A stretch of 32,000 bases of DNA from Methanothermobacter thermautotrophicus str. Delta H (GTDB lineage: Archaea; Methanobacteriota; Methanobacteria; Methanobacteriales; Methanothermobacteraceae). The translations under genes were made by a program, and so were the position numbers. Within the stretch, counting starts at the first letter, position 1, and each line of letters begins with the position of its first letter. Positions 8,351-27,899 of the stretch are shown piece by piece. The DNA lies in the NCBI RefSeq assembly GCF_000008645.1, contig NC_000916.1, forward strand, positions 540,001-572,000, read 5' to 3'. Below the pieces are notes generated by a model. The model did not search any database. It was not told where the DNA came from and saw only the letters and a program-made list of their open reading frames with translations.

Positions 8351-9112
8351 ATGCTGGCACTCTCAATCGCAGGCTTCGACCCATCAGGAGGGGCGGGTAT
8401 ACTTGCAGATATAAAGACCTTCTCTGCCCTGGGGGTGTACGGTGCAGGTGTCATAACCGCATTGACAGCCCAGAACGTGGGGAGGGTCTCCGGTATAATG
8501 CCAGTACCCCCTGGATTTGTGGAGGAACAGCTCGACCTTGTGATGGAGGACCTTCCAGTTGTGCATGCAAAGACAGGAATGCTCTACAGTGCAGAGATAG
8601 TGGAGGCCGTTGCAGAGAAGGTGCGTGAGTACGGTCTGAGGGTGATTGTTGACCCGGTCATGGTGGCTGCATCCGGGGGTGAACTCTCAGAGGGGAACTT
8701 TGTGAGGGCACTGAGGAGGCACCTCCTCCCTGAGGCCCTGATCGTGACACCCAATGTCGCTGAGGCAGAGAGGCTCTCAGATATCCCCATAGGGACCGTG
8801 GATGATGCAATAAGGGCTGCCAGGGTCATAGGTGAACTCTGCGATGTCATAATCACGGGGGGTCACCTCGGCGGGAGGAGTGTAATCCTGATCGACGGTG
8901 ATGTGGAGGTTCTTGAGGGGAAACTTCTTGATAGCCGGAACACCCATGGGAGTGGATGCTCCTTCTCAGCTGCAACGGCAGCATACCTTGAGAGGGGGCT
9001 TGACCTGGGGGAAGCCCTGAGGATGGCCGACGACTTTGTGAGGGAGGCCATAAGGCACGGGCACCACGGTACCCTCAATCAGTTCTGGATGCACGGCAGG
9101 TACCCTGAATAG
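8351..9112 (+). CDS. thiD: Hydroxymethylpyrimidine/phosphomethylpyrimidine kinase (thiamine biosynthesis)
   Basis: LSIAGFDPSGGAGILADIKT, AQN and THGSGCSFSAA motifs. ATG 8351 is preceded by AGGAGGTGA. The upstream extension to 8240 overlaps the cofC tail out of frame. Confidence 0.92.
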   Translation: MLALSIAGFDPSGGAGILADIKTFSALGVYGAGVITALTAQNVGRVSGIMPVPPGFVEEQLDLVMEDLPVVHAKTGMLYSAEIVEAVAEKVREYGLRVIVDPVMVAASGGELSEGNFVRALRRHLLPEALIVTPNVAEAERLSDIPIGTVDDAIRAARVIGELCDVIITGGHLGGRSVILIDGDVEVLEGKLLDSRNTHGSGCSFSAATAAYLERGLDLGEALRMADDFVREAIRHGHHGTLNQFWMHGRYPE

Positions 9113-9333
9113 TCCATTAACTGAAAATAATTCGGATTTTTATTTCCGGCCCCTGACGGATCATGTCATGATGAATTTTTGTGTACTGTAAGAGTCAGAT
9201 GTTTGAGTTTGAGTCATTGCATAGCACCTTAATGATCCCATATGGTCTGCAGAATTGATAGTTTGATAAAGTTGGGATCTGGAAAGCTTAACAGAAACTT
9301 CAGTCAGTGGAATAAAAAAATAAGGTATACGGT

Positions 9334-10356
9334 CTAGAGGAGTTCATCCCTGAGGTCAATCGTATCCTCAAGTGATGGCCCCGTGGATATTATGGTAACC
9401 GGGACCCCCGTCGCGGATTCTATATCCTCAATGAAACGTTTAACCTCAGCGGAAAGGTCAGAGTACTCCCTGACACGTTCACATTCAGGGTAAAGCCTGT
9501 CGACACAGGTTACAGCGATCTGCGTGGCTCCATTGATCATGCATGATTCACGGGCCATCTCCATGTCAAAGAGACCTATCCTCCTCCTTCTACCTGTAAC
9601 GGTACCGTACTCCTCAAGGCCCATCTCCTCAGCCTCCTCCTGGCTGATCTCGGTTGGGAATGGGCCCTCACCCACCCTTGTAATGTAGGATTTGAAGACA
9701 GCTATGACCTCATCAACCCTTGTGGGTCCTATGCCGACATCTGCAGCCGCAGTGCTTGCAGTTGTGTCCTTACTCGTAACGTAGGGGTAGGTCCCGTAGT
9801 AGAGGGAGAGGCCGAAGCCCTGTGAGCCCTCAACAAATACGTCCTCGCCCTCATCGAGTGCCTCATTGACCTCAAGGGGGACGTCAGTCAGGAAGTCCCC
9901 AAGTTCCTCCACTTCACGGGCGAGCTTCGCAGTCCTCATCACGCGCTCAGCATTGGCCGGGCCGCACCCGGTGCCTGTGCTCCCTATCTTCTTGGAGAGG
10001 TAACTGGAGGACTGGTCCTGCTCCTTGTGCTTCCTCTCTATTATGGCGCACCTGTAGTCAACCCCTGTCCTGTCAGCGACACTGTACTTTGAGAGGTACT
10101 CCATCTCATGGAGGAAGACCTCGGGGTCGACCAGGACCCCCGCCCCTATCAGGAGCCTTGCATCCTCATGGAAGAAACCTGATGGGGTTAACCTGAGCCC
10201 GTACTTATCTCCCCTGAACTCAACGGAATGGCCCGCGTTTGGTCCCACACCTGCCCTTGCGATTATTGATGGCTTGTCATTGTAACAGAGATATGTGATA
10301 CATTTGCCTTTACCTTCGTCACCCCATCCTCCTCCAACTAAAACGGTGCATGTCAT
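9334..10356 (-). CDS. purA: Adenylosuccinate synthetase (short archaeal form)
   Basis: [12 protein letters not shown]-loop, GPNAGH and TGTGCGPA motifs; 340 aa. Confidence 0.93.
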
Positions 10357-17625: not shown

Positions 17626-18438
17626 TCAGTGCCCCTGACCACCGAAGTCTGTTTTAAGTTCTGATCCCGCAAATAACATCACAGCAAGGGCTGCAGCCAC
17701 GTTCAGAATCATCAGGAATATTCCTCCAGCAAGGGTGCCCTGGACCGGGAAGAGGAAGTATGAGAGGTTTCCTGTTGTGTGGATTATCATGGTGGCCAGT
17801 ATACTGCCTGTGGAGTTGTAGACCCAGGTATATATCACCGAGGCAGAGATTATAAGGATCATGAAACTCCAGAATGGGACCTGGGACTGTATGCTACCCC
17901 CAATGAAGAATAGGGGTATGTGCCAGAGCCCCCATATGAACCCTATTATCAGGGCCGCGTAGATTGGCGAGTACCTCCTCTGAAGCCGTGGAAGGGCATA
18001 GCCCCTCCACCCGAATTCCTCCTGCAGTGGCCCTCCGAGGAAGAATATGTAAATGAACACCATTATGACCATGAGGGGCTGTGAGGTCCAGTAGAGGTAC
18101 GGCTGGGGGTCACCCCACAGGACACCCAGGTAGAGTGCCACTGCAGTTAGCACAGGAAAGAATAAGAGGATTACAGGCCACCAGATCCTGTGAAAGTCGT
18201 AATTAACACCTTTCCTGAGGAGTGCCAGCAGTTCATCCCGGCCGCCATACCTGTAGCTCAGGAGAACGGCTGCAAGTGTTGGGCCGAATGCTGCAGGGTT
18301 GTAGGGGCTTTCAAGGAATGCCTGCAGGGGCTGGGGAAAACTGAAGCCCGCAGAGACCATTGCTACAGGTATCCAGAGTACCCATGAAAATATGAATGCC
18401 ACAATGAAAAAGTCTGATATGCGATCATTCTCCATCAT
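17626..18438 (-). CDS. CPBP-family intramembrane glutamic endopeptidase (CAAX protease / Abi family)
   Basis: Polytopic membrane protein with CPBP motifs EEFGWRGY, WGLWH and HTTGN. Start is GTG 18444 or ATG 18438/18435 after GGTGAT. Confidence 0.85.
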   Translation of the reverse strand: MMENDRISDFFIVAFIFSWVLWIPVAMVSAGFSFPQPLQAFLESPYNPAAFGPTLAAVLLSYRYGGRDELLALLRKGVNYDFHRIWWPVILLFFPVLTAVALYLGVLWGDPQPYLYWTSQPLMVIMVFIYIFFLGGPLQEEFGWRGYALPRLQRRYSPIYAALIIGFIWGLWHIPLFFIGGSIQSQVPFWSFMILIISASVIYTWVYNSTGSILATMIIHTTGNLSYFLFPVQGTLAGGIFLMILNVAAALAVMLFAGSELKTDFGGQGH

Positions 18439-18464
18439 AATCACCAGAATCTTATCAGTGCAAC

Positions 18465-21417: not shown

Positions 21418-22395
21418 ATGATACTAATCGTTGGCGGAGCAGGATACATCGGGTCACATGTCAATAAATTTCTATCAGAGAGGGGATACGAAACCCTCAT
21501 CCTTGATAACCTCACAAGGGGCCACAGGGATTTTGTTAAGTGGGGTGAATTCATAGAGGGTAACCTGGGTGATAGGAGACTCCTTGACAGGACCTTTGAA
21601 ACCCATGACGTGGATGCGGTCATGCACTTCGCAGCATTCACAGATGTCGGTGAATCGGTCCTCAAACCAGGAAGGTACTACCATAACAACGTCGTGAACA
21701 CCATAAACCTCCTGGATTCCATGGTGGACCATGGCGTCAGGGACTTCATATTTTCATCCACCTGTGCAGTCTACGGGAACCCCATGGAGATACCAATAAG
21801 CGAGGAACACCCCCTCAACCCCATAAGCCCCTATGGCAGATCCAAACTCATGGTTGAGGAGATACTGGGGGACTACAGGGATGCCTATGGTCTCAACTAT
21901 GTCTCGCTCCGCTACTTCAATGCAGCCGGAGCAGACCCTGAAGGAGAGGTGGGGGAGCTTCATAACCCTGAAACGCACCTCATACCCATCGTCCTGGATG
22001 TTGCCCTGGGTCTGCGGGACGCCGTGCGGATATTCGGCACAGATTACCCAACACCCGACGGAACATGTGTGAGGGACTACATCCACGTTATGGACCTGGC
22101 AGATGCCCACTGGAGGGCGCTCAGATACCTTGAGGGTGGAGAAAGCGGGGTTTTCAACCTTGGAAACGGGAACGGCTTCTCAGTCATGGAGGTTATAGAG
22201 ACCTGCAGGGAGGTCACAGGTGCCAGTATAAATGCTGTTGAGGATGACAGAAGACCAGGTGATCCACCGGAACTCGTGGGCAGTGCCGGTAGGGCCAGGA
22301 GGGTCCTTGGCTGGAGGCCGGAATTCACAGAACTCGAGGATATAATAGAAACCGCATGGAACTGGCATTCAAGGATCAGAGGGGGGATCTCATGA
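21418..22395 (+). CDS. galE: UDP-glucose 4-epimerase
   Basis: GGAGYIGSH Rossmann motif, the YxxxK catalytic motif (SPYGRSK), RYFNAAGA and DGTCVRDYIHVMDLA motifs. Confidence 0.93.
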   Translation: MILIVGGAGYIGSHVNKFLSERGYETLILDNLTRGHRDFVKWGEFIEGNLGDRRLLDRTFETHDVDAVMHFAAFTDVGESVLKPGRYYHNNVVNTINLLDSMVDHGVRDFIFSSTCAVYGNPMEIPISEEHPLNPISPYGRSKLMVEEILGDYRDAYGLNYVSLRYFNAAGADPEGEVGELHNPETHLIPIVLDVALGLRDAVRIFGTDYPTPDGTCVRDYIHVMDLADAHWRALRYLEGGESGVFNLGNGNGFSVMEVIETCREVTGASINAVEDDRRPGDPPELVGSAGRARRVLGWRPEFTELEDIIETAWNWHSRIRGGIS

Positions 22396-24323
22396 TAACC
22401 GTCACAGGAGATATAACCGTTGACTGGATACAGTGGTCCGTTAAGGGAGACTCTGATGTCTCAGAATTTAACTGGAAGAACCACCTTGGATTCAAGAGGA
22501 AGGCGCTTGAGGGCGGCGCACTCCTCACAGCAAGGATGCTGAAGAACTTTACGGAGGTTAATCACCCATCAATAGGGGATGAGCCAGGCAACACTGACCC
22601 CTCAGAGTTCATACACTCCTTCGCGGAACTCAAAGCCACAGGCGATGGTTATCATGTCAAGAAGTTCATGGGTTACACCGGCCCGGACAGCGGTCTTCCA
22701 TCAATGCCATTCAGTTTAAAGGAACATGAATCCCCCATCATAGTGATCGATGACGCTGGGAACGGGTTCAGGGAGATGGAGGAGCGGTGGCCGTCCCAGA
22801 TCATGGGTGGAGACCCCCTCATTGTGCTTAAGATGTCATCACCACTGTTCAGAGGCAGCCTCTGGGAGCACCTCCTGGAAGAACATCCAGAGAAGCTAAT
22901 AGTCATAATAACCGCAGATGACCTCAGGGAGCACGGTGCCAACATAACAAGAAGGCTCTCATGGGAGAGGACCGCAGAGGACTTCATCTGGCAGATGGAG
23001 AACAACAGATCACTCGAAGATCTCAGGGACCTCAACGTGGTGGTCCGCATAGGCCTCGAGGGCGCCATAAATTACAACAGGGGGGATGTCAGGCTATTCT
23101 ACCACCCACAGTTCTTTGAGGGCGACCTTACAGAGAGGGCCCCGGGAAAAATGCAGGGCTGTGGCTCTGCGTTCACTGCAGCATTCACCGCGGCCCTATC
23201 AGAGGGTCGTGAGATGGATGAATGCATAAGGCGGGGTATTACAGCCGCTGCCAGACTCCTTGAAAGAGGGTTTTCATCCGAACCTGACTACCCAATATCT
23301 GATGTATTCATGAGTGCAGATGATGAGATAGGGGCTGTTGAAATACCTCAACACCCCCGGGGACTCTGGACAATCGCCAGTTCACCCCCACTATTTGACA
23401 TAGAGTCAGTTTCAAGATACATTGTGATAAACGGTTACAGTAGAAAAAAATGTCCGCTACCTGTTGCCCACTTCGGTAAACTTATAACAGCAGACCGAAG
23501 GGAGATCGAGGGTTATCAGAGCATAAGGAACCTGATGGTGGAGTACATGAAAAATGATAACCCTGAGAGACCCCTCTGCATTGGAGTGTTCGGGCCCCCC
23601 GGTGCCGGCAAATCCTTCGCAGTGAGCCAGCTTGCCGCAAGTGTTGATCCTGAGCGAATAAAGCACCTAAACTTCAACATATCCCAGTTCAGGTGCGAGG
23701 ATGATCTTATAGACGCCTTCCACCAGATAAGAGACGCTGTACTTGAGGGTATGGTCCCCCAGGCATTCTTTGATGAATTCGACTCCCCTATCGGCGAGAA
23801 AAAACTGGGCTGGGTTAAGTACTTCCTTGCACCGATGCAGGACGGAGAGTTCAGGGAAGGCGACAGCATGCATCCCCTGGGCAAATGCATCCTGGTATTT
23901 GCCGGGGGTACGAGCAGCACCTTCCAGGAGTTTGAGTCACAGGACCCTGAGGTTCTGAAGGAGGCCAAGGTCAGGGACTTCATAAGCCGGCTCAGAGGAT
24001 ACGTGAACATCATAGGTCCAGACCCACAGCACAGACGCGACAAGTTTTTCATGCTACGCAGGGCAATACTCCTGAGATCCATGTTCGAAAGGAAGGCTCC
24101 CCACCTTTTTGATGCCAGCGGACGCCTTAGAATCGATGAGGGAGTTCTAAACGCTTTCCTTATGATACCTGAATACAGACATGGTGTGAGGTCAATGGAG
24201 GCCATACTTGATATGAGCATCCTCCAGGACGTCAGGAAGTTTGAAAAGGCGTCACTTCCCTCTGCAGGTCAGCTGGACCTCCACGTGGACGGCGAGCTAT
24301 TCCACAGAATGGCAATGGATTAG
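22392..24323 (+). CDS. Fusion protein: N-terminal ribokinase-superfamily-like domain (degenerate catalytic motif) plus C-terminal classical AAA ATPase; function unknown
   Basis: ATG 22392 overlaps the galE stop (ATGA) and is preceded by GAGGGGGG. The N-terminal half has GGALLTARML and GKMQGCGSAFTAAFTAALSEG motifs, comparable to THGSGCSFSAATAAYLERG of ThiD in this window. The C-terminal half has Walker A GPPGAGKS, Walker B FFDEFD and a sensor-1-like LVFAGGTS. Confidence 0.8.
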   Translation: MITVTGDITVDWIQWSVKGDSDVSEFNWKNHLGFKRKALEGGALLTARMLKNFTEVNHPSIGDEPGNTDPSEFIHSFAELKATGDGYHVKKFMGYTGPDSGLPSMPFSLKEHESPIIVIDDAGNGFREMEERWPSQIMGGDPLIVLKMSSPLFRGSLWEHLLEEHPEKLIVIITADDLREHGANITRRLSWERTAEDFIWQMENNRSLEDLRDLNVVVRIGLEGAINYNRGDVRLFYHPQFFEGDLTERAPGKMQGCGSAFTAAFTAALSEGREMDECIRRGITAAARLLERGFSSEPDYPISDVFMSADDEIGAVEIPQHPRGLWTIASSPPLFDIESVSRYIVINGYSRKKCPLPVAHFGKLITADRREIEGYQSIRNLMVEYMKNDNPERPLCIGVFGPPGAGKSFAVSQLAASVDPERIKHLNFNISQFRCEDDLIDAFHQIRDAVLEGMVPQAFFDEFDSPIGEKKLGWVKYFLAPMQDGEFREGDSMHPLGKCILVFAGGTSSTFQEFESQDPEVLKEAKVRDFISRLRGYVNIIGPDPQHRRDKFFMLRRAILLRSMFERKAPHLFDASGRLRIDEGVLNAFLMIPEYRHGVRSMEAILDMSILQDVRKFEKASLPSAGQLDLHVDGELFHRMAMD

Positions 24324-24393
24324 GTGTGGTACGGAGAGAATACCATGATAGTCAGCTTCGACGAAACAATCCATTAATGGATCAGGTGATATA

Positions 24394-25656
24394 TTGGAGA
24401 GAAGAAGAGTTCTAAGACCCGAGGACTACGTTGACAGACTAAAATACCTTAACAGGGTCGCTGATGAATACGCCGAATCAGGTGATCTAAAGAAGACCGC
24501 TGACACCCTGTTCAGAATCGGGAGGGAGTACCACAGGATCAGCAGAACAGACCTTGCCATTGAGAGTTACAGGAATGCCCTAGAGCTCTACAGGGAGGTG
24601 GATGACCCCCATGAGGCTGATGTTTCACTCTGCATGGGGAGGGCCTATGAGGGTAAGGGCAAACTGAAGAGGGCCGCATGGTTCTACAACCTTGCAGCAT
24701 CGGGTTTCCGTAAAACAGGGGATCTTAAAAGGGAATCAGATGCTGTACTCTACAGTGCAAGGATCCTCGAGAAGATGGGGAAACACGATGAGGCCCTTGA
24801 GGCATACAGAAAGTACAATGAGATCTGCATGAAGAACCAGGACAAAATCAAGGTCCTTGTCGCATATTCAAAGATGAAGGAACTGGAGGCAGAACTCAGG
24901 GAAGAGATTTTAAGGTACAACGCCTCCGTACTGCTCCTCTACCTTGCAATTCTCATCATCGCCGAGTATTCGACGACGTTCATAAGCATGAAACTGGGCC
25001 TCGTGATTCATGCGTCTCTCCTTTTCGCCCTCTTTATCCATTCGGCCCTATCAAAGAAGAAGATGAAGGTCCTCCTTGCCGCCATGATGATACTGCCACT
25101 CATAAGGATCGTGGGGCTTTCAATGCCCCTCGCGGTCATTAAACACCTTTACTGGTATGTTATAATAGCAATACCCCTGTTTGCTGCATCCGCTGCCCTC
25201 ATGAGGACCCAGAAACTTGGAAGGGATGATGTTGGATTAAATCTTAAAGGTCGGAAGTGGCAGCTGGCTGTTGCACTTACCGGTTTTCCCATGGGTTACA
25301 TCGAGTACCAGATACTCAGACCCGAAGCACTGATACCCTCGCCCTCAGTTTCAAATCTACTGGTGGGCTTTCTGGTCATGCTTATAGGGACGGGACTGGC
25401 AGAGGAGCTCCTCTTCAGGGGGATCCTTCAGAGAAATGCAGAGGACGTTATGGGAAAACTTCCAGGACTTCTGTATGCTTCACTCCTCTTCACAGCCCTT
25501 CACGTTGGCTGGAAATCCGGTTACGACCTTATATTTGTTTTCAGTGTCGCCATGATCTATGGGCTGGCTTTCCAGAGAACAAGGAGCATTTCAGGGATAA
25601 CCGTATCCCACGGCATATCGAATTCCATTCTCTTCCTGATAATGCCCTTCCTCTAA
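24394..25656 (+). CDS. TPR-like repeat domain fused to a CPBP-family intramembrane protease domain
   Basis: TTG start 7 nt after AGGTGA. The first roughly 170 aa are helical-repeat/TPR-like (A..Y..ALELY, GKGKLKRAAWFYNLAA, GKHDEALEAYRKY). A polytopic domain follows, with CPBP motifs EELLFRGILQ, FTALHV and SHGISNS. Confidence 0.82.
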   Translation: MERRRVLRPEDYVDRLKYLNRVADEYAESGDLKKTADTLFRIGREYHRISRTDLAIESYRNALELYREVDDPHEADVSLCMGRAYEGKGKLKRAAWFYNLAASGFRKTGDLKRESDAVLYSARILEKMGKHDEALEAYRKYNEICMKNQDKIKVLVAYSKMKELEAELREEILRYNASVLLLYLAILIIAEYSTTFISMKLGLVIHASLLFALFIHSALSKKKMKVLLAAMMILPLIRIVGLSMPLAVIKHLYWYVIIAIPLFAASAALMRTQKLGRDDVGLNLKGRKWQLAVALTGFPMGYIEYQILRPEALIPSPSVSNLLVGFLVMLIGTGLAEELLFRGILQRNAEDVMGKLPGLLYASLLFTALHVGWKSGYDLIFVFSVAMIYGLAFQRTRSISGITVSHGISNSILFLIMPFL

Positions 25657-25731
25657 TTTTCATTAAAATTCAAAAAAGAAATGGGAGTTCCCTTCAACAT
25701 TAAAAAATTCAAGAGTCATGGTGCCGGGAGG

Positions 25732-26589
25732 CTACCGGTAACCATCAATGAGATTCTTCAGATATTCAATTAACTCGGGCCTTATCTCATCATCGTTCAT
25801 TGCAAACTCAAGGGATGTTTTAAGCCAGTCAACCCTGTTACCAATATCATAGGTCCGTCCCCTGAAAACGCAACCATAGACCTCCTCGAGGCACCTCATG
25901 GCATCTGTGAGCTGTATCTCGCCACCAAATCCAGGTGGTACCTCCCTTATGTGGTCAAATATTTCACTCTCAAGGACGTACCTGCCCATTATGGCAAGGT
26001 TTGAAGGCGCCTCAGTTACAGGTGGCTTCTCAACCATATCCCTTATGCTGTAGATTCCCTCTGAGACCTCTTCACCATCTATGATACCGTATCGCTCCAC
26101 CTTATCCCTGGGGACCTCCTCCACTGCAATTGCAGATGCCCCGTACCTCTCATATATATCCATTAACTGGCGCGTGCAGGGGACCCCTGATGATGTTATG
26201 GTGTCCCCAAGGAGAACAGCGAAGGCGTCCTCACCGTCTATATGTTTCCTTGCACAGTATATTGCATCCCCGAGGCCCTTCTGCTCCTTCTGTCTCACGA
26301 AGTAGATGTCTGCAAGGTCTGAAATCGCCTCAACCTCGTCAAGGTAATTCATCTTGTTATTCTTTCTCAGGAAGTATTCAAGTTCAAATGAACGGTCAAA
26401 GTGGTCCTCAATCGACCTCTTACCCTTACCTGTTATTATGAGTATATCATCTATACCCGAGGCTACTGCCTCCTCAACAACGTACTGTATTGTTGGCTTG
26501 TCAAAGACCGGTAGCATCTCCTTGGGCTGTGCCTTGGTTGCAGGCAGAAAACGGGTCCCAAGGCCAGCTGCTGGTATAACTGCCTTCAT
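25732..26589 (-). CDS. galU: UTP--glucose-1-phosphate uridylyltransferase
   Basis: N-terminal AVIPAAGLGTRFLPATKAQPKEMLPV, with VEKP and GE.QLTDA motifs typical of GalU. Confidence 0.92.
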   Translation of the reverse strand: MKAVIPAAGLGTRFLPATKAQPKEMLPVFDKPTIQYVVEEAVASGIDDILIITGKGKRSIEDHFDRSFELEYFLRKNNKMNYLDEVEAISDLADIYFVRQKEQKGLGDAIYCARKHIDGEDAFAVLLGDTITSSGVPCTRQLMDIYERYGASAIAVEEVPRDKVERYGIIDGEEVSEGIYSIRDMVEKPPVTEAPSNLAIMGRYVLESEIFDHIREVPPGFGGEIQLTDAMRCLEEVYGCVFRGRTYDIGNRVDWLKTSLEFAMNDDEIRPELIEYLKNLIDGYR

Positions 26590-26631: not shown

Positions 26632-27255
26632 TTAACCACCCGCTGCAAGAGTACATAGAACTGGAGGTGCAAGCTGTGTTATTGTAACCGTCCCATCAGC
26701 ATTCACTGTTATGAGAAGCTCGACGTATATTGATTTTATACCCTTGAGGAATTCAGCGCCCCTTGCATTGTCCTGTGTGACGTTGATCTGGTTTGAAGTT
26801 ATGGTGGATGCCGGGTAGAATGCGTGTGATGCTGTAAGAAGGTATGCATTTGTTTCGTCATCGATTTTGTCCTGGCTACCTCCATTTACTGTCATGTTGA
26901 TGGTGGCGTTTCCTGTTTTGTTACCATGTGGATCGATCCACATCTTCAGTGTAAATGTTGTTCCGGCAGGTAATGATCCATTGTAGCCAAGTTCCTTTGA
27001 TAGATCCGCTGTGACCCTTCCATTTGGCTGAAGCCATGAATCCATGTATATGTTCGTTAGTGAGCCATCAGCCTTTGATACGTTCTCTATAACCGCAACC
27101 GCATGTACCTGATGGTCAGTGGCATGGTTGTCGAATGCAAGGAGTGTTGCGCCTGCTACAGGGGGTGTGACTGTCTGTTTTCCCATCATGAGGGCCGCGG
27201 CTCCCACTATGATGATTATAACCACTATGGCCAGTATTAAAGCATTTCTGTTCAT
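26632..27255 (-). CDS. Secreted/membrane-anchored hypothetical protein rich in N-glycosylation sequons
   Basis: Signal-anchor ALILAIVVIIIIVGAAALMM. By my count there are six N-x-S/T sequons (NVS, NGS, NKT, NAT, NMT, NVT). RBS GGGGGT. Immediately downstream of the small poly-Thr membrane protein. Confidence 0.65.
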   Translation of the reverse strand: MNRNALILAIVVIIIIVGAAALMMGKQTVTPPVAGATLLAFDNHATDHQVHAVAVIENVSKADGSLTNIYMDSWLQPNGRVTADLSKELGYNGSLPAGTTFTLKMWIDPHGNKTGNATINMTVNGGSQDKIDDETNAYLLTASHAFYPASTITSNQINVTQDNARGAEFLKGIKSIYVELLITVNADGTVTITQLAPPVLCTLAAGG

Positions 27256-27267
27256 CCTTTACCCCCT

Positions 27268-27507
27268 TTAGACAATTGTCAGAACCCTGTATATCACTAT
27301 CGCTGCAAACACTATCAGCAGTGGCAGAATTGCCACGTTGGAACCGGATACCAGTGCCTTTAATGTTTCGTTTCCTGTTTCATCGGAGCTGAGCACCTCC
27401 TTAACAGCCAGGAAACCAATAAGTGCAATTACTGCTATTATGCTGTATGTCATGACATCTGCGGTTGTCACCGTGGTGGTAGTTGTTGTTGTGACTGTCG
27501 AAATCAT
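27268..27507 (-). CDS. Small membrane protein with an N-terminal poly-threonine tract
   Basis: ATG 27507 is preceded by GGAGGT. The product is MISTVTTTTTTTVTTADV followed by two hydrophobic helices. The upstream extension to 27588 lacks an RBS and abuts the DUF167 gene. Confidence 0.55.
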   Translation of the reverse strand: MISTVTTTTTTTVTTADVMTYSIIAVIALIGFLAVKEVLSSDETGNETLKALVSGSNVAILPLLIVFAAIVIYRVLTIV

Positions 27508-27584
27508 TTCTAACCTCCAGTTGTTTTTTTTATCTTGATGACTAATAAAGTTTTCTGTACATTTAATAACAGCTCTTAAAACAT

Positions 27585-27899
27585 TCATGGAATTTCAAGA
27601 CCAAATTTTTCTGAGACCAGCTTCAGGAAGAGATCCCTTCCCATGCCCTGAATCCTGATTGTCTTCTGACGGCTCTTCTGCCCTGACACTATCTCAACAT
27701 CCCTTCCAAAGGTCTCTGAGAATTCCTTTATTATCTCCCTGTTTGCCTTCCCTTTCTGGGGGGGTGAATGGATCTTCACCTCAATCCTCTTCCGCCATTC
27801 ATTGTAGGATGGGATCCCAAATTTTCCCGATGCAGGTGATACCTCAATGTTCACAAGAAGGTCATCACCCACCTCCCTAAGACAGTCCATAGTGATCAC
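27585..27899 (-). CDS. DUF167 / YggU-family protein (UPF0235)
   Basis: VNIEVSPASGK...IEVKIHSPPQKGKANREIIKEFSETFGRDVEIVSGQKSRQKTIRI matches the YggU pattern (P..GKAN..l..fla...gv....i.i.sG..sr.K.i.i). Confidence 0.85.
   Translation of the reverse strand: MITMDCLREVGDDLLVNIEVSPASGKFGIPSYNEWRKRIEVKIHSPPQKGKANREIIKEFSETFGRDVEIVSGQKSRQKTIRIQGMGRDLFLKLVSEKFGLEIP

Follow-up and report, generated by a model that had tools for sequence, protein, structure and literature searches.

A 32,000-nucleotide (nt) stretch of the Methanothermobacter thermautotrophicus ΔH genome (NC_000916.1, positions 540,001 to 572,000; hereafter the window) encodes, between galE and a gene for a membrane protein with TPR and CPBP domains (TPR-CPBP), a 643-amino-acid (aa) protein that fuses a kinase-like fold to an AAA+ ATPase module. 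We found that this fusion protein is almost certainly, in family membership and in domain anatomy, an RyR-less member of a pseudo-ribokinase-AAA+(-RyR) family. The explanation that we favor, with a probability of about 0.55, is that it acts as a ligand-gated AAA+ switch, stands alone as an RyR-less member of its family, and came to be paired with TPR-CPBP through its site of insertion. An earlier reading of the window, made from the sequence only, had proposed a conserved fusion/TPR-CPBP module coupled to galE. The motifs quoted for that proposal are present where they were placed. The adjacency is found only within Methanothermobacter, and each gene has degenerated in some lineages while the other stayed intact.

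The fusion protein belongs to a large family in which most members carry an RyR tail

The 643-aa protein aligns with RyR-bearing relatives of ~850 aa at 46-49% identity over 99-100% of its length (E 1e-160 to 1e-190), and an alignment of 24 members contains 56 invariant columns distributed across both halves. We recovered 2,856 family matches among the scored candidates from a 90%-clustered protein database and confirmed at least 548 family loci among 185,579 species-representative genomes. The hosts are bacteria and archaea, including Clostridia, Negativicutes, Planctomycetota, Acidobacteriota, Chloroflexota, and several methanogen orders. Database names for these proteins are "RyR domain-containing protein" or "AAA family ATPase", and the record for the M. 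thermautotrophicus ΔH orthologue (MTH632; UniProt O26729, AAB85138.1) reads "unknown". The sequence-only reading had taken the combination of a kinase fold with an AAA module to be uncharacterized, and we found no characterized protein, curated profile, or paper that covers it. The rarity that this implied does not hold, as an exhaustive scan returned 2,013 family clusters (50% identity) at E <= 1e-30. The family is therefore huge but uncharacterized. For the 643-aa protein, Pfam, NCBIfam, and PADLOC gave just sub-threshold matches, the one from PADLOC-DB 2.0 being to QatA (15.6 bits) over the P-loop only (residues 376-438). A literature search, thin on subscription journals, returned no papers describing the family.

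Most members reach ~850 aa owing to a C-terminal RyR domain. This tail matches the repeats of RyR1/2/3 at E ~1e-30, and searching the PDB with a profile of the full family gave output dominated by RyR matches. PF02026 (RyR) has no match in the 643-aa protein, and the chain stops at residue 643, exactly before the linker and RyR domain of its relatives. RyR-less forms occur at three or more separate places in a rough neighbor-joining tree, where the sister of the Methanothermobacter clade comprises an RyR-bearing protein from a Methanobacteriaceae locus (L008) and an RyR-less protein from M. oryzae. One apparent RyR-less form, in Methanoregulaceae (L058, 5992-8498), was discarded. The gene is frameshifted, and its RyR tail runs on in an overlapping open reading frame of 160 aa. 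Length alone therefore overcounts RyR-less forms.

The fusion gene and its two domains lie at the following positions of the window.

22392..24323, forward strand: 643-aa fusion gene, orthologue of MTH632 / UniProt O26729 (same 90%-identity cluster as AAB85138.1)
22392..23291, forward strand: N-terminal ribokinase/PfkB-fold domain with beta-sheet lid, residues 1 to ~300 (AlphaFold, Foldseek, phmmer)
23367..24320, forward strand: AAA+ module with helical lid, residues ~326-643 (invariant motifs, model, Foldseek)

The gene is functional in Methanothermobacter, as judged from its selection and the detection of its product. The ratio of nonsynonymous to synonymous substitution rates (dN/dS) within the genus is 0.08-0.17, which indicates purifying selection. 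O26729 was found by mass spectrometry in M. thermautotrophicus ribosome preparations, at ~70 kDa and cross-linked to aminoacyl-tRNA synthetases, a result that the authors left unanalyzed (PMC4005694). The protein is therefore expressed. Its presence in these preparations also raises the possibility that it may sediment as a large complex (PMC4005694).

The N-terminal half has a ribokinase fold without the catalytic aspartate

An AlphaFold model of the 643-aa protein, built with 24 homologues, reached a mean predicted local distance difference test (pLDDT) score of 84.8 and a predicted template modeling score of 0.84. Residues 1-300 are mostly above 90, with a low-scoring loop at ~21-30. A ribokinase-type fold had been suggested by eye, and structure search found one. 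With the N-terminal half as query, Foldseek returned more than 50 PfkB structures at E 2e-10 to 9e-7 and target template modeling (TM) scores of 0.43-0.60. The best match was 2abq (E 2e-10; target TM score 0.55-0.60), and 3q1y, 4e84, 2c4e, and 1rka were also matched, at up to E 6e-7. The alignment spans the whole length of ribokinase-family kinases, lid included.

Similarity to PfkB proteins at the sequence level is marginal. The Pfam PfkB profile scores the protein at 18.8 bits against a cutoff of 25.8, and the NCBIfam ribokinase model at 12.4 against 299.65. The sole sequence-level alignment came from a phmmer search of the PDB, in which 2nwh matched at E 0.006 and GCGS (residues 256-259, nt 23157-23168) fell on the catalytic GAGD. 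The absence of the catalytic aspartate, which the sequence-only reading had noted, extends across the family: in 24 of 24 aligned members one of S, C, G, A, or N takes its place, never D, within a consensus PGxMQGLxxAF. The two strings on which the reading had relied are GGALLTARML (residues 41-50, with the GG dipeptide at 41-42) and GKMQGCGSAF...LLERG (252-293), and the ThiD string with which it had compared them lies at 8942-9061 on the forward strand. By eye, IITADDLR (172-179; ADDLR 175-179) matches IITPNETE of Escherichia coli RbsK, and this would place the invariant R179 at the glutamate of the NxxE motif. The RbsK sequence used was confirmed to be identical to 1RKA/1GQT.

Among the 24 members, the invariant polar residues of this half include D7, N27, D120-D121-N124, K147, R179, S190-E192, and E243, and D11 is nearly so. 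A domain this rich in invariant polar residues is not a decayed scaffold. The simplest reading of this conservation is that the domain may have retained a ligand-binding cleft, and we consider it probable that the pseudo-kinase serves as a ligand binder.

An AAA+ module with intact Walker motifs forms the C-terminal half

The C-terminal half had been read as a classical AAA module from GPPGAGKS, FFDEFD, and LVFAGGTS. These motifs are present, and Foldseek supports the AAA+ fold. Walker A (GPPGAGKS) occupies residues 401-408 (nt 23592-23615) and Walker B (FFDEFD) residues 459-464 (nt 23766-23783). They are followed by a sensor-1 region (FAGGT, 503-507, within LVFAGGTS, 501-508), SRLRG (532-536), and RRA (556-558). 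Across the 24 aligned members, GPPGxGKS, FFDEFD, FAGGT, SRLRG, RRA, and HGxRS are invariant, including residues G401, G404, G406, K407, D461, and E462. The conserved arginines of SRLRG and RRA are compatible with predicted ATP hydrolysis and ring assembly.

This half was modeled with a pLDDT of 81 as an AAA+ core with a C-terminal helical lid. Foldseek matched it to NtrC1, PspF, FleQ, p97, Vps4, and ORC at E ~1e-3 with probabilities of 0.9-1.0, Mpa is similar as well, and the Pfam AAA score, 20.0 bits, is just below the cutoff of 21.2. The 643-aa protein has no transmembrane segment, and a search of viral folds in BFVD returned nothing beyond generic AAA matches.

The pairing with TPR-CPBP is probably not a conserved module

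The genes that flank the fusion are arranged as follows.

21418..22395, forward strand: galE-type UDP-glucose 4-epimerase, context gene (Pfam Epimerase, E 1.6e-60)
24324..24393, forward strand: spacer of 70 nt between the fusion and TPR-CPBP (read from the sequence)
24394..25656, forward strand: 420-aa TPR-CPBP membrane protein, orthologue of MTH633 (Pfam; same 90%-identity cluster as AAB85139.1)
25732..26589, reverse strand: galU-type UTP-glucose-1-phosphate uridylyltransferase, convergent with TPR-CPBP (Pfam NTP_transferase, E 1.4e-28)

This layout agrees with the sequence-only reading, which had galE upstream, a convergent galU downstream, and sequon-rich proteins nearby; the proteins in question, of 207 aa and 189 aa, have 6 and 4 N-x-S/T sequons, respectively. 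The overlap that it reported between the galE stop and the fusion start can be read directly as ATGA at 22392-22395, where galE ends ...GGG ATC TCA TGA and the fusion begins with ATG at 22392-22394. A Shine-Dalgarno-like AGGGGGGAT precedes this ATG. If translation began instead at the upstream ATG of position 22356, the product would be 655 aa long. Database records of the fusion are mostly 643 aa long, with a few JGI records at 655 aa. As had also been noted, TPR-CPBP begins 70 nt after the end of the fusion stop at 24323, with a TTG at 24394 that has a GGTGAT Shine-Dalgarno sequence 5 nt ahead of it. The spacer contains no oligo-T tract, and read-through from the fusion into TPR-CPBP is therefore plausible. 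The two genes are probably co-transcribed in the M. thermautotrophicus genome, judging from this layout. Spacers in orthologous loci are just 8-16 nt long. A scan for sigma-70 promoters and intrinsic terminators was set aside because it is inapplicable to archaea, and its output was at shuffle level.

Despite this tight arrangement, the fusion likely does not form an obligate module with TPR-CPBP or galE. The order fusion, TPR-CPBP, convergent galU is present in every Methanothermobacter lineage sampled. However, the whole region is collinear in the genus, so adjacency within it carries little weight. In M. tenebrarum-type genomes an MFS gene on the opposite strand lies between galE and the fusion. 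M. oryzae has the fusion and TPR-CPBP on different contigs, and its TPR-CPBP gene resides in a sugar cluster with GT2, NTP-transferase, epimerase, and DegT genes. A Methanobacterium-like contig (L101) has galE, TPR-CPBP, and convergent galU in this order. There, galE and TPR-CPBP are ~250 nt apart, and nothing of the fusion is seen.

Degeneration has gone in both directions. Locus L098, which shares its gene order with M. tenebrarum-type loci and is 75-81% identical to them in nucleotides, has kept just 23 aa of the fusion (70% identity, E 7e-5), and the adjacent TPR-CPBP gene is intact. The same frameshift of the fusion occurs in two samples (L094/L095), again with TPR-CPBP intact, and in L096 TPR-CPBP is split while the fusion is intact. 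Several records from cultured strains (M. wolfeii, Methanothermobacter sp. THM-1, and DSM 3267) have the fusion in two or three fragments, one of 172 aa together with one of 337, 470, or 512 aa that is named "KAP family NTPase". Other M. wolfeii strains have the full gene, at 645-647 aa. The fusion is thus inactivated repeatedly within one species. TPR-CPBP has an omega of 0.14-0.23 whether the fusion is intact or not. We considered relaxed selection on TPR-CPBP after loss of the fusion and rejected it, because the L098 value of 0.23 does not exceed what was measured across all pairs (0.14-0.23). Between species groups TPR-CPBP diverges much faster than the fusion, with identities of 46-49% and 68-69%, respectively. 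Moreover, of 82 loci, only the 3 from Methanothermobacter contribute to the cluster of CPBP neighbors within three genes of family members, and the Pfam families that recur in 81 same-strand immediate neighbors of relatives do not include CPBP. Where the fusion was inserted, together with possible co-transcription, accounts for its pairing with TPR-CPBP and galE better than a conserved module does.

TPR-CPBP is itself a well-supported member of its family. A cytoplasmic TPR region (residues ~1-165, nt 24394-24888; TPR_1, 33.4 bits) is followed by about six transmembrane segments that begin at ~171 and by an Rce1-like/CPBP domain at 321-411 (nt 25354-25626). The Rce1-like profile (PF02517) matches at 60.9 bits against a cutoff of 22.4 (E 1.5e-16). 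All three CPBP motifs that the sequence-only reading had recognized, EExxxR, FxxxH, and HxxxN, are present as EELLFR (337), FTALH (366), and HGISN (406), and E337, E338, R342, F366, H370, H406, and N410 are invariant across 20 homologues. TPR-CPBP has 299 homologous matches, mostly in Methanobacteriales, that are 40-50% identical over the full length. PADLOC-DB 2.0 gave it nothing better than E > 0.005, and its scores against the sorting-protease subfamilies MrtS, MrtJ, and myxosortase are far under their cutoffs.

The trio of galE, TPR-CPBP, and convergent galU is kept beyond Methanothermobacter (window 21418-26589; L101 3768-7191; L098 2786-7318; L093 361-8535). At Methanobacterium-type loci, the neighbors of TPR-CPBP include GT2, NTP-transferase, epimerase, and DegT genes, and a second CPBP gene often follows. 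An epimerase or NTP-transferase gene lies within 5 kb of TPR-CPBP in 6 of the 9 loci that have at least 4 kb of flanking sequence. This synteny with nucleoside diphosphate (NDP)-sugar genes suggests an envelope or glycan-linked role for the TPR-CPBP family.

Other genes of the surroundings were recorded as well. The window encodes a second CPBP/Rce1-like membrane protein (272 aa; EEFGWRG, WGLWH, HTTGN) at 17626-18444 on the reverse strand, ~4 kb upstream of galE, and its gene adjoins DUF2953 and Spore_YtfJ-type genes, likewise in L004. Downstream of galU, on the reverse strand, the 207-aa protein with six sequons is N-terminally anchored (26632-27255), and 27268-27588 encodes a membrane protein of 106 aa that contains the poly-Thr stretch TTTTTTTVTT. 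The 207-aa and 106-aa genes are syntenically conserved in L101 (7436-8338).

Many relatives outside Firmicutes neighbor TIR, SLATT, or RyR genes

We examined the genes within three positions of family members at 78 non-redundant loci and ran Pfam on the 81 same-strand immediate neighbors. RyR-linked and/or SLATT-like neighbors occur at 25 of the 78 loci, and their distribution is uneven: 23 of 42 non-Firmicutes loci have them, compared with 2 of 36 Firmicutes-type loci. The families recurring among the 81 neighbors are RyR (8), TrkA_N (4), TIR (3), NUDIX (2), and Zeta toxin (2). Further contexts include SIR2_2 (M. oryzae, L002), 2TM (Methanomassiliicoccales, L009), and four-transmembrane proteins resembling SLATT_3/DUF4231 (L073, L080, L085, L090).

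The Methanobacteriaceae locus L008 combines several of these genes. SLATT_1 lies upstream of the family member, and a TIR-AAA-RyR paralogue and another TIR protein lie downstream. The AAA half of the paralogue is 41% identical, and its ATPase site is degenerate, with FFKNFD at Walker B and SGLHG at the arginines. Such an active/inactive pair of AAA proteins suggests, from their sequences, a hetero-oligomer. When the AAA core of the paralogue was searched against a large protein database, it returned a single fragment. Either few proteins have this architecture or the word index failed to pick them up, and we give the paralogue little weight. We had entertained an "N-terminal effector slot" and dropped this idea because the paralogue search gave one fragment only. 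As a side observation, the region L008 4774-11774, on a contig from a metagenome-assembled genome that is shared with L012, is a candidate four-gene system whose last TIR gene is convergent.

Two other kinds of neighbor deserve mention. Downstream of the family member at L022, positions 8507-10270 encode an MshEN domain (cyclic di-GMP-binding) fused to TIR_2, an architecture of a nucleotide sensor plus an NADase. At several loci the neighbor is an RyR-linked protein of ~600 aa with two or three N-terminal transmembrane segments (L083, 5164-6999, reverse strand; L043, L053, L058, L059, L071). These ~600-aa proteins cluster with RyR-domain proteins, and the one that we inspected, at L083, carries a TrkA_N-like Rossmann motif. 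From these sequence features, they could be nucleotide-gated, channel-like membrane effectors.

According to a 2026 preprint, adenine nucleotides and cyclic ADP-ribose (cADPR) are ligands of RyR (R12) domains, and the phage protein RyDEP cleaves or sequesters the 2'/3'cADPR signals of Thoeris (PMC13232231). Because of these binding properties (PMC13232231) and the TIR, SIR2, SLATT, and RyR neighbors, part of the family may take part in nucleotide signaling of the NAD+/ADP-ribose (ADPR) type. The sequence-only reading had speculated about an Abi-like stress response. The TIR, SLATT, and RyR contexts of relatives echo this indirectly, although these contexts lack CPBP. A role in conflict systems, argued by gene association, is tentative and in our view falls short of even odds.

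Discussion

Our favored explanation for the 643-aa protein can be stated as a series of proposed steps. A ribose-containing small molecule, perhaps a nucleoside or an ADP-ribose-like compound, would bind the retained kinase cleft and, in relatives, also the RyR domain. Binding would control ATP-dependent oligomerization or remodeling by the AAA+ module. Many non-Firmicutes relatives appear to be wired to TIR, SIR2, SLATT, 2TM, and transmembrane-TrkA_N-RyR proteins, in what may be conflict or antiviral signaling of the NAD+/ADPR type. The Methanothermobacter gene would have lost the RyR tail and such partners. In the most parsimonious history, galE, TPR-CPBP, and galU were together first, and the fusion entered between the first two of these genes in the ancestor of the genus. 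From then on it would have passed down vertically under purifying selection, becoming inactivated sporadically. TPR-CPBP would be a separate, older membrane protease of Methanobacteriales that travels with nucleotide-sugar genes.

Several observations weigh against this explanation. The mapping of N-terminal motifs onto ribokinase (GDxxxD, GG, and NxxE to DxxR) was done by eye, hhalign gave no meaningful alignment of the family alignment with E. coli RbsK, and a profile of 35 N-terminal domains found nothing at E <= 10 among PDB sequences. The link to conflict systems leans on relatives that are 38-47% identical, and about half of the sampled loci, including essentially all of those from Firmicutes, have no conflict-type neighbors. 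TIR, SIR2, SLATT, and RyR are absent from the 25 listed of the 44 Pfam families in the window, and these 25 are housekeeping, transport, or small uncharacterized families. The Methanothermobacter fusion diverges like galE, both showing 68-69% identity between species groups, and it is near-universal in the genus, unlike typical defense genes with their fast turnover. Finally, the same-strand adjacency of 8-70 nt with TPR-CPBP is kept genus-wide despite saturated synonymous divergence.

This last point bears on the module that the sequence-only reading had in mind, in which the kinase fold would sense a sugar or nucleotide-sugar and the AAA+ module would engage the cytoplasmic TPR domain to feed or regulate the CPBP protease, in connection with envelope glycans or an Abi-like response. 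The two genes do share a strand and lie 8-70 nt apart without an oligo-T terminator between them, and their order is kept genus-wide down to 68% identity for the fusion and 46% for TPR-CPBP. TPR domains are protein-interaction modules, and relatives of the fusion often adjoin a membrane protein (SLATT-like, 2TM, or transmembrane-TrkA_N-RyR), which makes a membrane partner a recurring theme. However, TPR-CPBP has its TPR domain across Methanobacteriales without an adjacent fusion, and the galE/TPR-CPBP/galU unit appears to be older, as L101 indicates. The fusion has been lost or frameshifted where TPR-CPBP was kept with its omega unchanged, L096 provides the converse split, M. oryzae has the two genes on separate contigs, and the CPBP neighbor cluster comprises three Methanothermobacter loci of 82 without recurring elsewhere. 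We therefore regard the module as quite unlikely, and a lineage-specific functional link between the fusion and TPR-CPBP as no more probable than that. An active sugar or nucleoside kinase that works in UDP-sugar metabolism with galE and galU, the AAA+ module being a regulatory add-on, would account for the ribokinase fold, the translational overlap with galE, and the nearby galU. Yet the GAGD aspartate is absent from 24 of 24 members, an invariant arginine stands, by eye, at the presumed NxxE glutamate, and PfkB and ribokinase profile scores are far under their cutoffs. In addition, an MFS gene parts galE from the fusion in M. tenebrarum-type genomes, and relatives elsewhere are unlinked to sugar genes, which together make an active kinase highly improbable.

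For the Methanothermobacter protein specifically, the main rival to the ligand-gated switch is a housekeeping AAA+ remodeler or chaperone with no part in conflict, acting for instance on complexes tied to translation or on other large ones, with the dead kinase as a sensor of metabolites (energy or nucleoside status) or as an oligomerization scaffold. Its divergence at the rate of galE, its strong purifying selection, and its fixed syntenic site across the genus all fit such a role, as does its expression in ordinary culture with cross-links to aminoacyl-tRNA synthetases in ribosome preparations (PMC4005694). The Firmicutes relatives, with no conflict-type neighbors, fit as well. On the other hand, the distribution of the family is patchy (at least 548 loci among 185,579 species genomes), pseudogenization and loss recur even within one genus, and more than half of the non-Firmicutes loci are associated with TIR, SLATT, or RyR genes. 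The cross-link is a single result that its authors did not analyze (PMC4005694). We consider a housekeeping role unlikely, although a little less so than the module. A more novel reading extends the ligand-gated switch: the pseudo-ribokinase-AAA+(-RyR) proteins would make up a class of immunity ATPases in prokaryotes, both new and widespread, that sense nucleotide or ADP-ribose signals. This is doubtful at present, and equally doubtful is its mechanistic form, in which the dead cleft, together with RyR where present, would read a ribose-containing signal and the AAA+ ring would activate TIR, SLATT, or channel-type effectors. Bolder is the sub-case in which the Methanothermobacter fusion would have been rewired to gate the adjacent TPR-CPBP protease.

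How does the family compare with known systems? Its N-terminal half has the same alpha/beta fold and lid as ribokinase/PfkB kinases such as E. coli RbsK (1RKA), Bacillus halodurans fructose-1-phosphate kinase (2ABQ), and the Methanocaldococcus jannaschii nucleoside kinase (2C4E). The C-terminal helix region aligns in sequence, and the GG dipeptide and the N-terminal G-x4-D are equivalent by eye. Unlike these kinases, the fusion has GCGS in place of GAGD (family-wide G-x-x-x-A-F), by eye an arginine at the presumed NxxE glutamate, and sub-cutoff scores, and its kinase fold is fused to an AAA+ module. To our knowledge, no characterized PfkB kinase carries such a fused module. With the classical and sigma54-activator AAA+ proteins (p97, Vps4, Mpa, NtrC1, PspF, FleQ) and ORC/Cdc6, the fusion shares the P-loop GPPGxGKS, an hhhhDE Walker B, a sensor-1-like threonine, arginines like those of the second region of homology, and the C-terminal helical lid. 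However, no AAA+ clade is close to it (best E ~1e-3, TM score <= 0.54; Pfam AAA just under cutoff), and we saw no evidence of a pore loop or a substrate domain in it.

Prokaryotic and phage RyR (R12, PF02026) proteins share with most family members the RyR end, and RyR proteins are also neighbors of the family. Because of this tail and these neighbors, the family is tied to recognition of adenine nucleotides and cADPR. In contrast to an AAA+ fusion, RyDEP is a small viral protein that stands alone as a dimer (PMC13232231), and the protein in the window has no RyR domain. Relatives adjoin genes reminiscent of Thoeris-like and SMODS/SLATT-type systems (TIR, SIR2_2, SLATT_1/3, DUF4231, 2TM, and MshEN-TIR), whereas the 643-aa protein has no PADLOC match beyond P-loop noise. 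TPR-CPBP has the Pfam membership and three catalytic motifs of the CPBP/Rce1-like glutamic intramembrane proteases (Abi family). It differs from them in its N-terminal cytoplasmic TPR region and in its synteny with galE, galU, and NDP-sugar genes rather than with abortive-infection or bacteriocin-immunity contexts.

Altogether, ~2,000 diverse protein clusters can now be described: a dead ribokinase fold precedes an AAA+ module whose Walker motifs are intact, and an RyR tail usually follows. The clusters include an M. thermautotrophicus ΔH gene that has been annotated "unknown" since 1997. Annotation should not present the stretch of galE, fusion, TPR-CPBP, and galU as a functional module. What is conserved is the grouping of TPR-CPBP with the nucleotide-sugar genes, and it offers a separate lead on the envelope biology of Methanobacteriales. 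The link between RyR domains and the cADPR signals of immunity dates only from 2026 (PMC13232231). The family combines RyR with an AAA+ module and a putative second ribose-binding fold, often beside TIR and SLATT genes, and, archaeal members included, it is a candidate for the host side of this signaling. If the immunity reading is true, MTH632 would be an archaeal and genetically tractable member.

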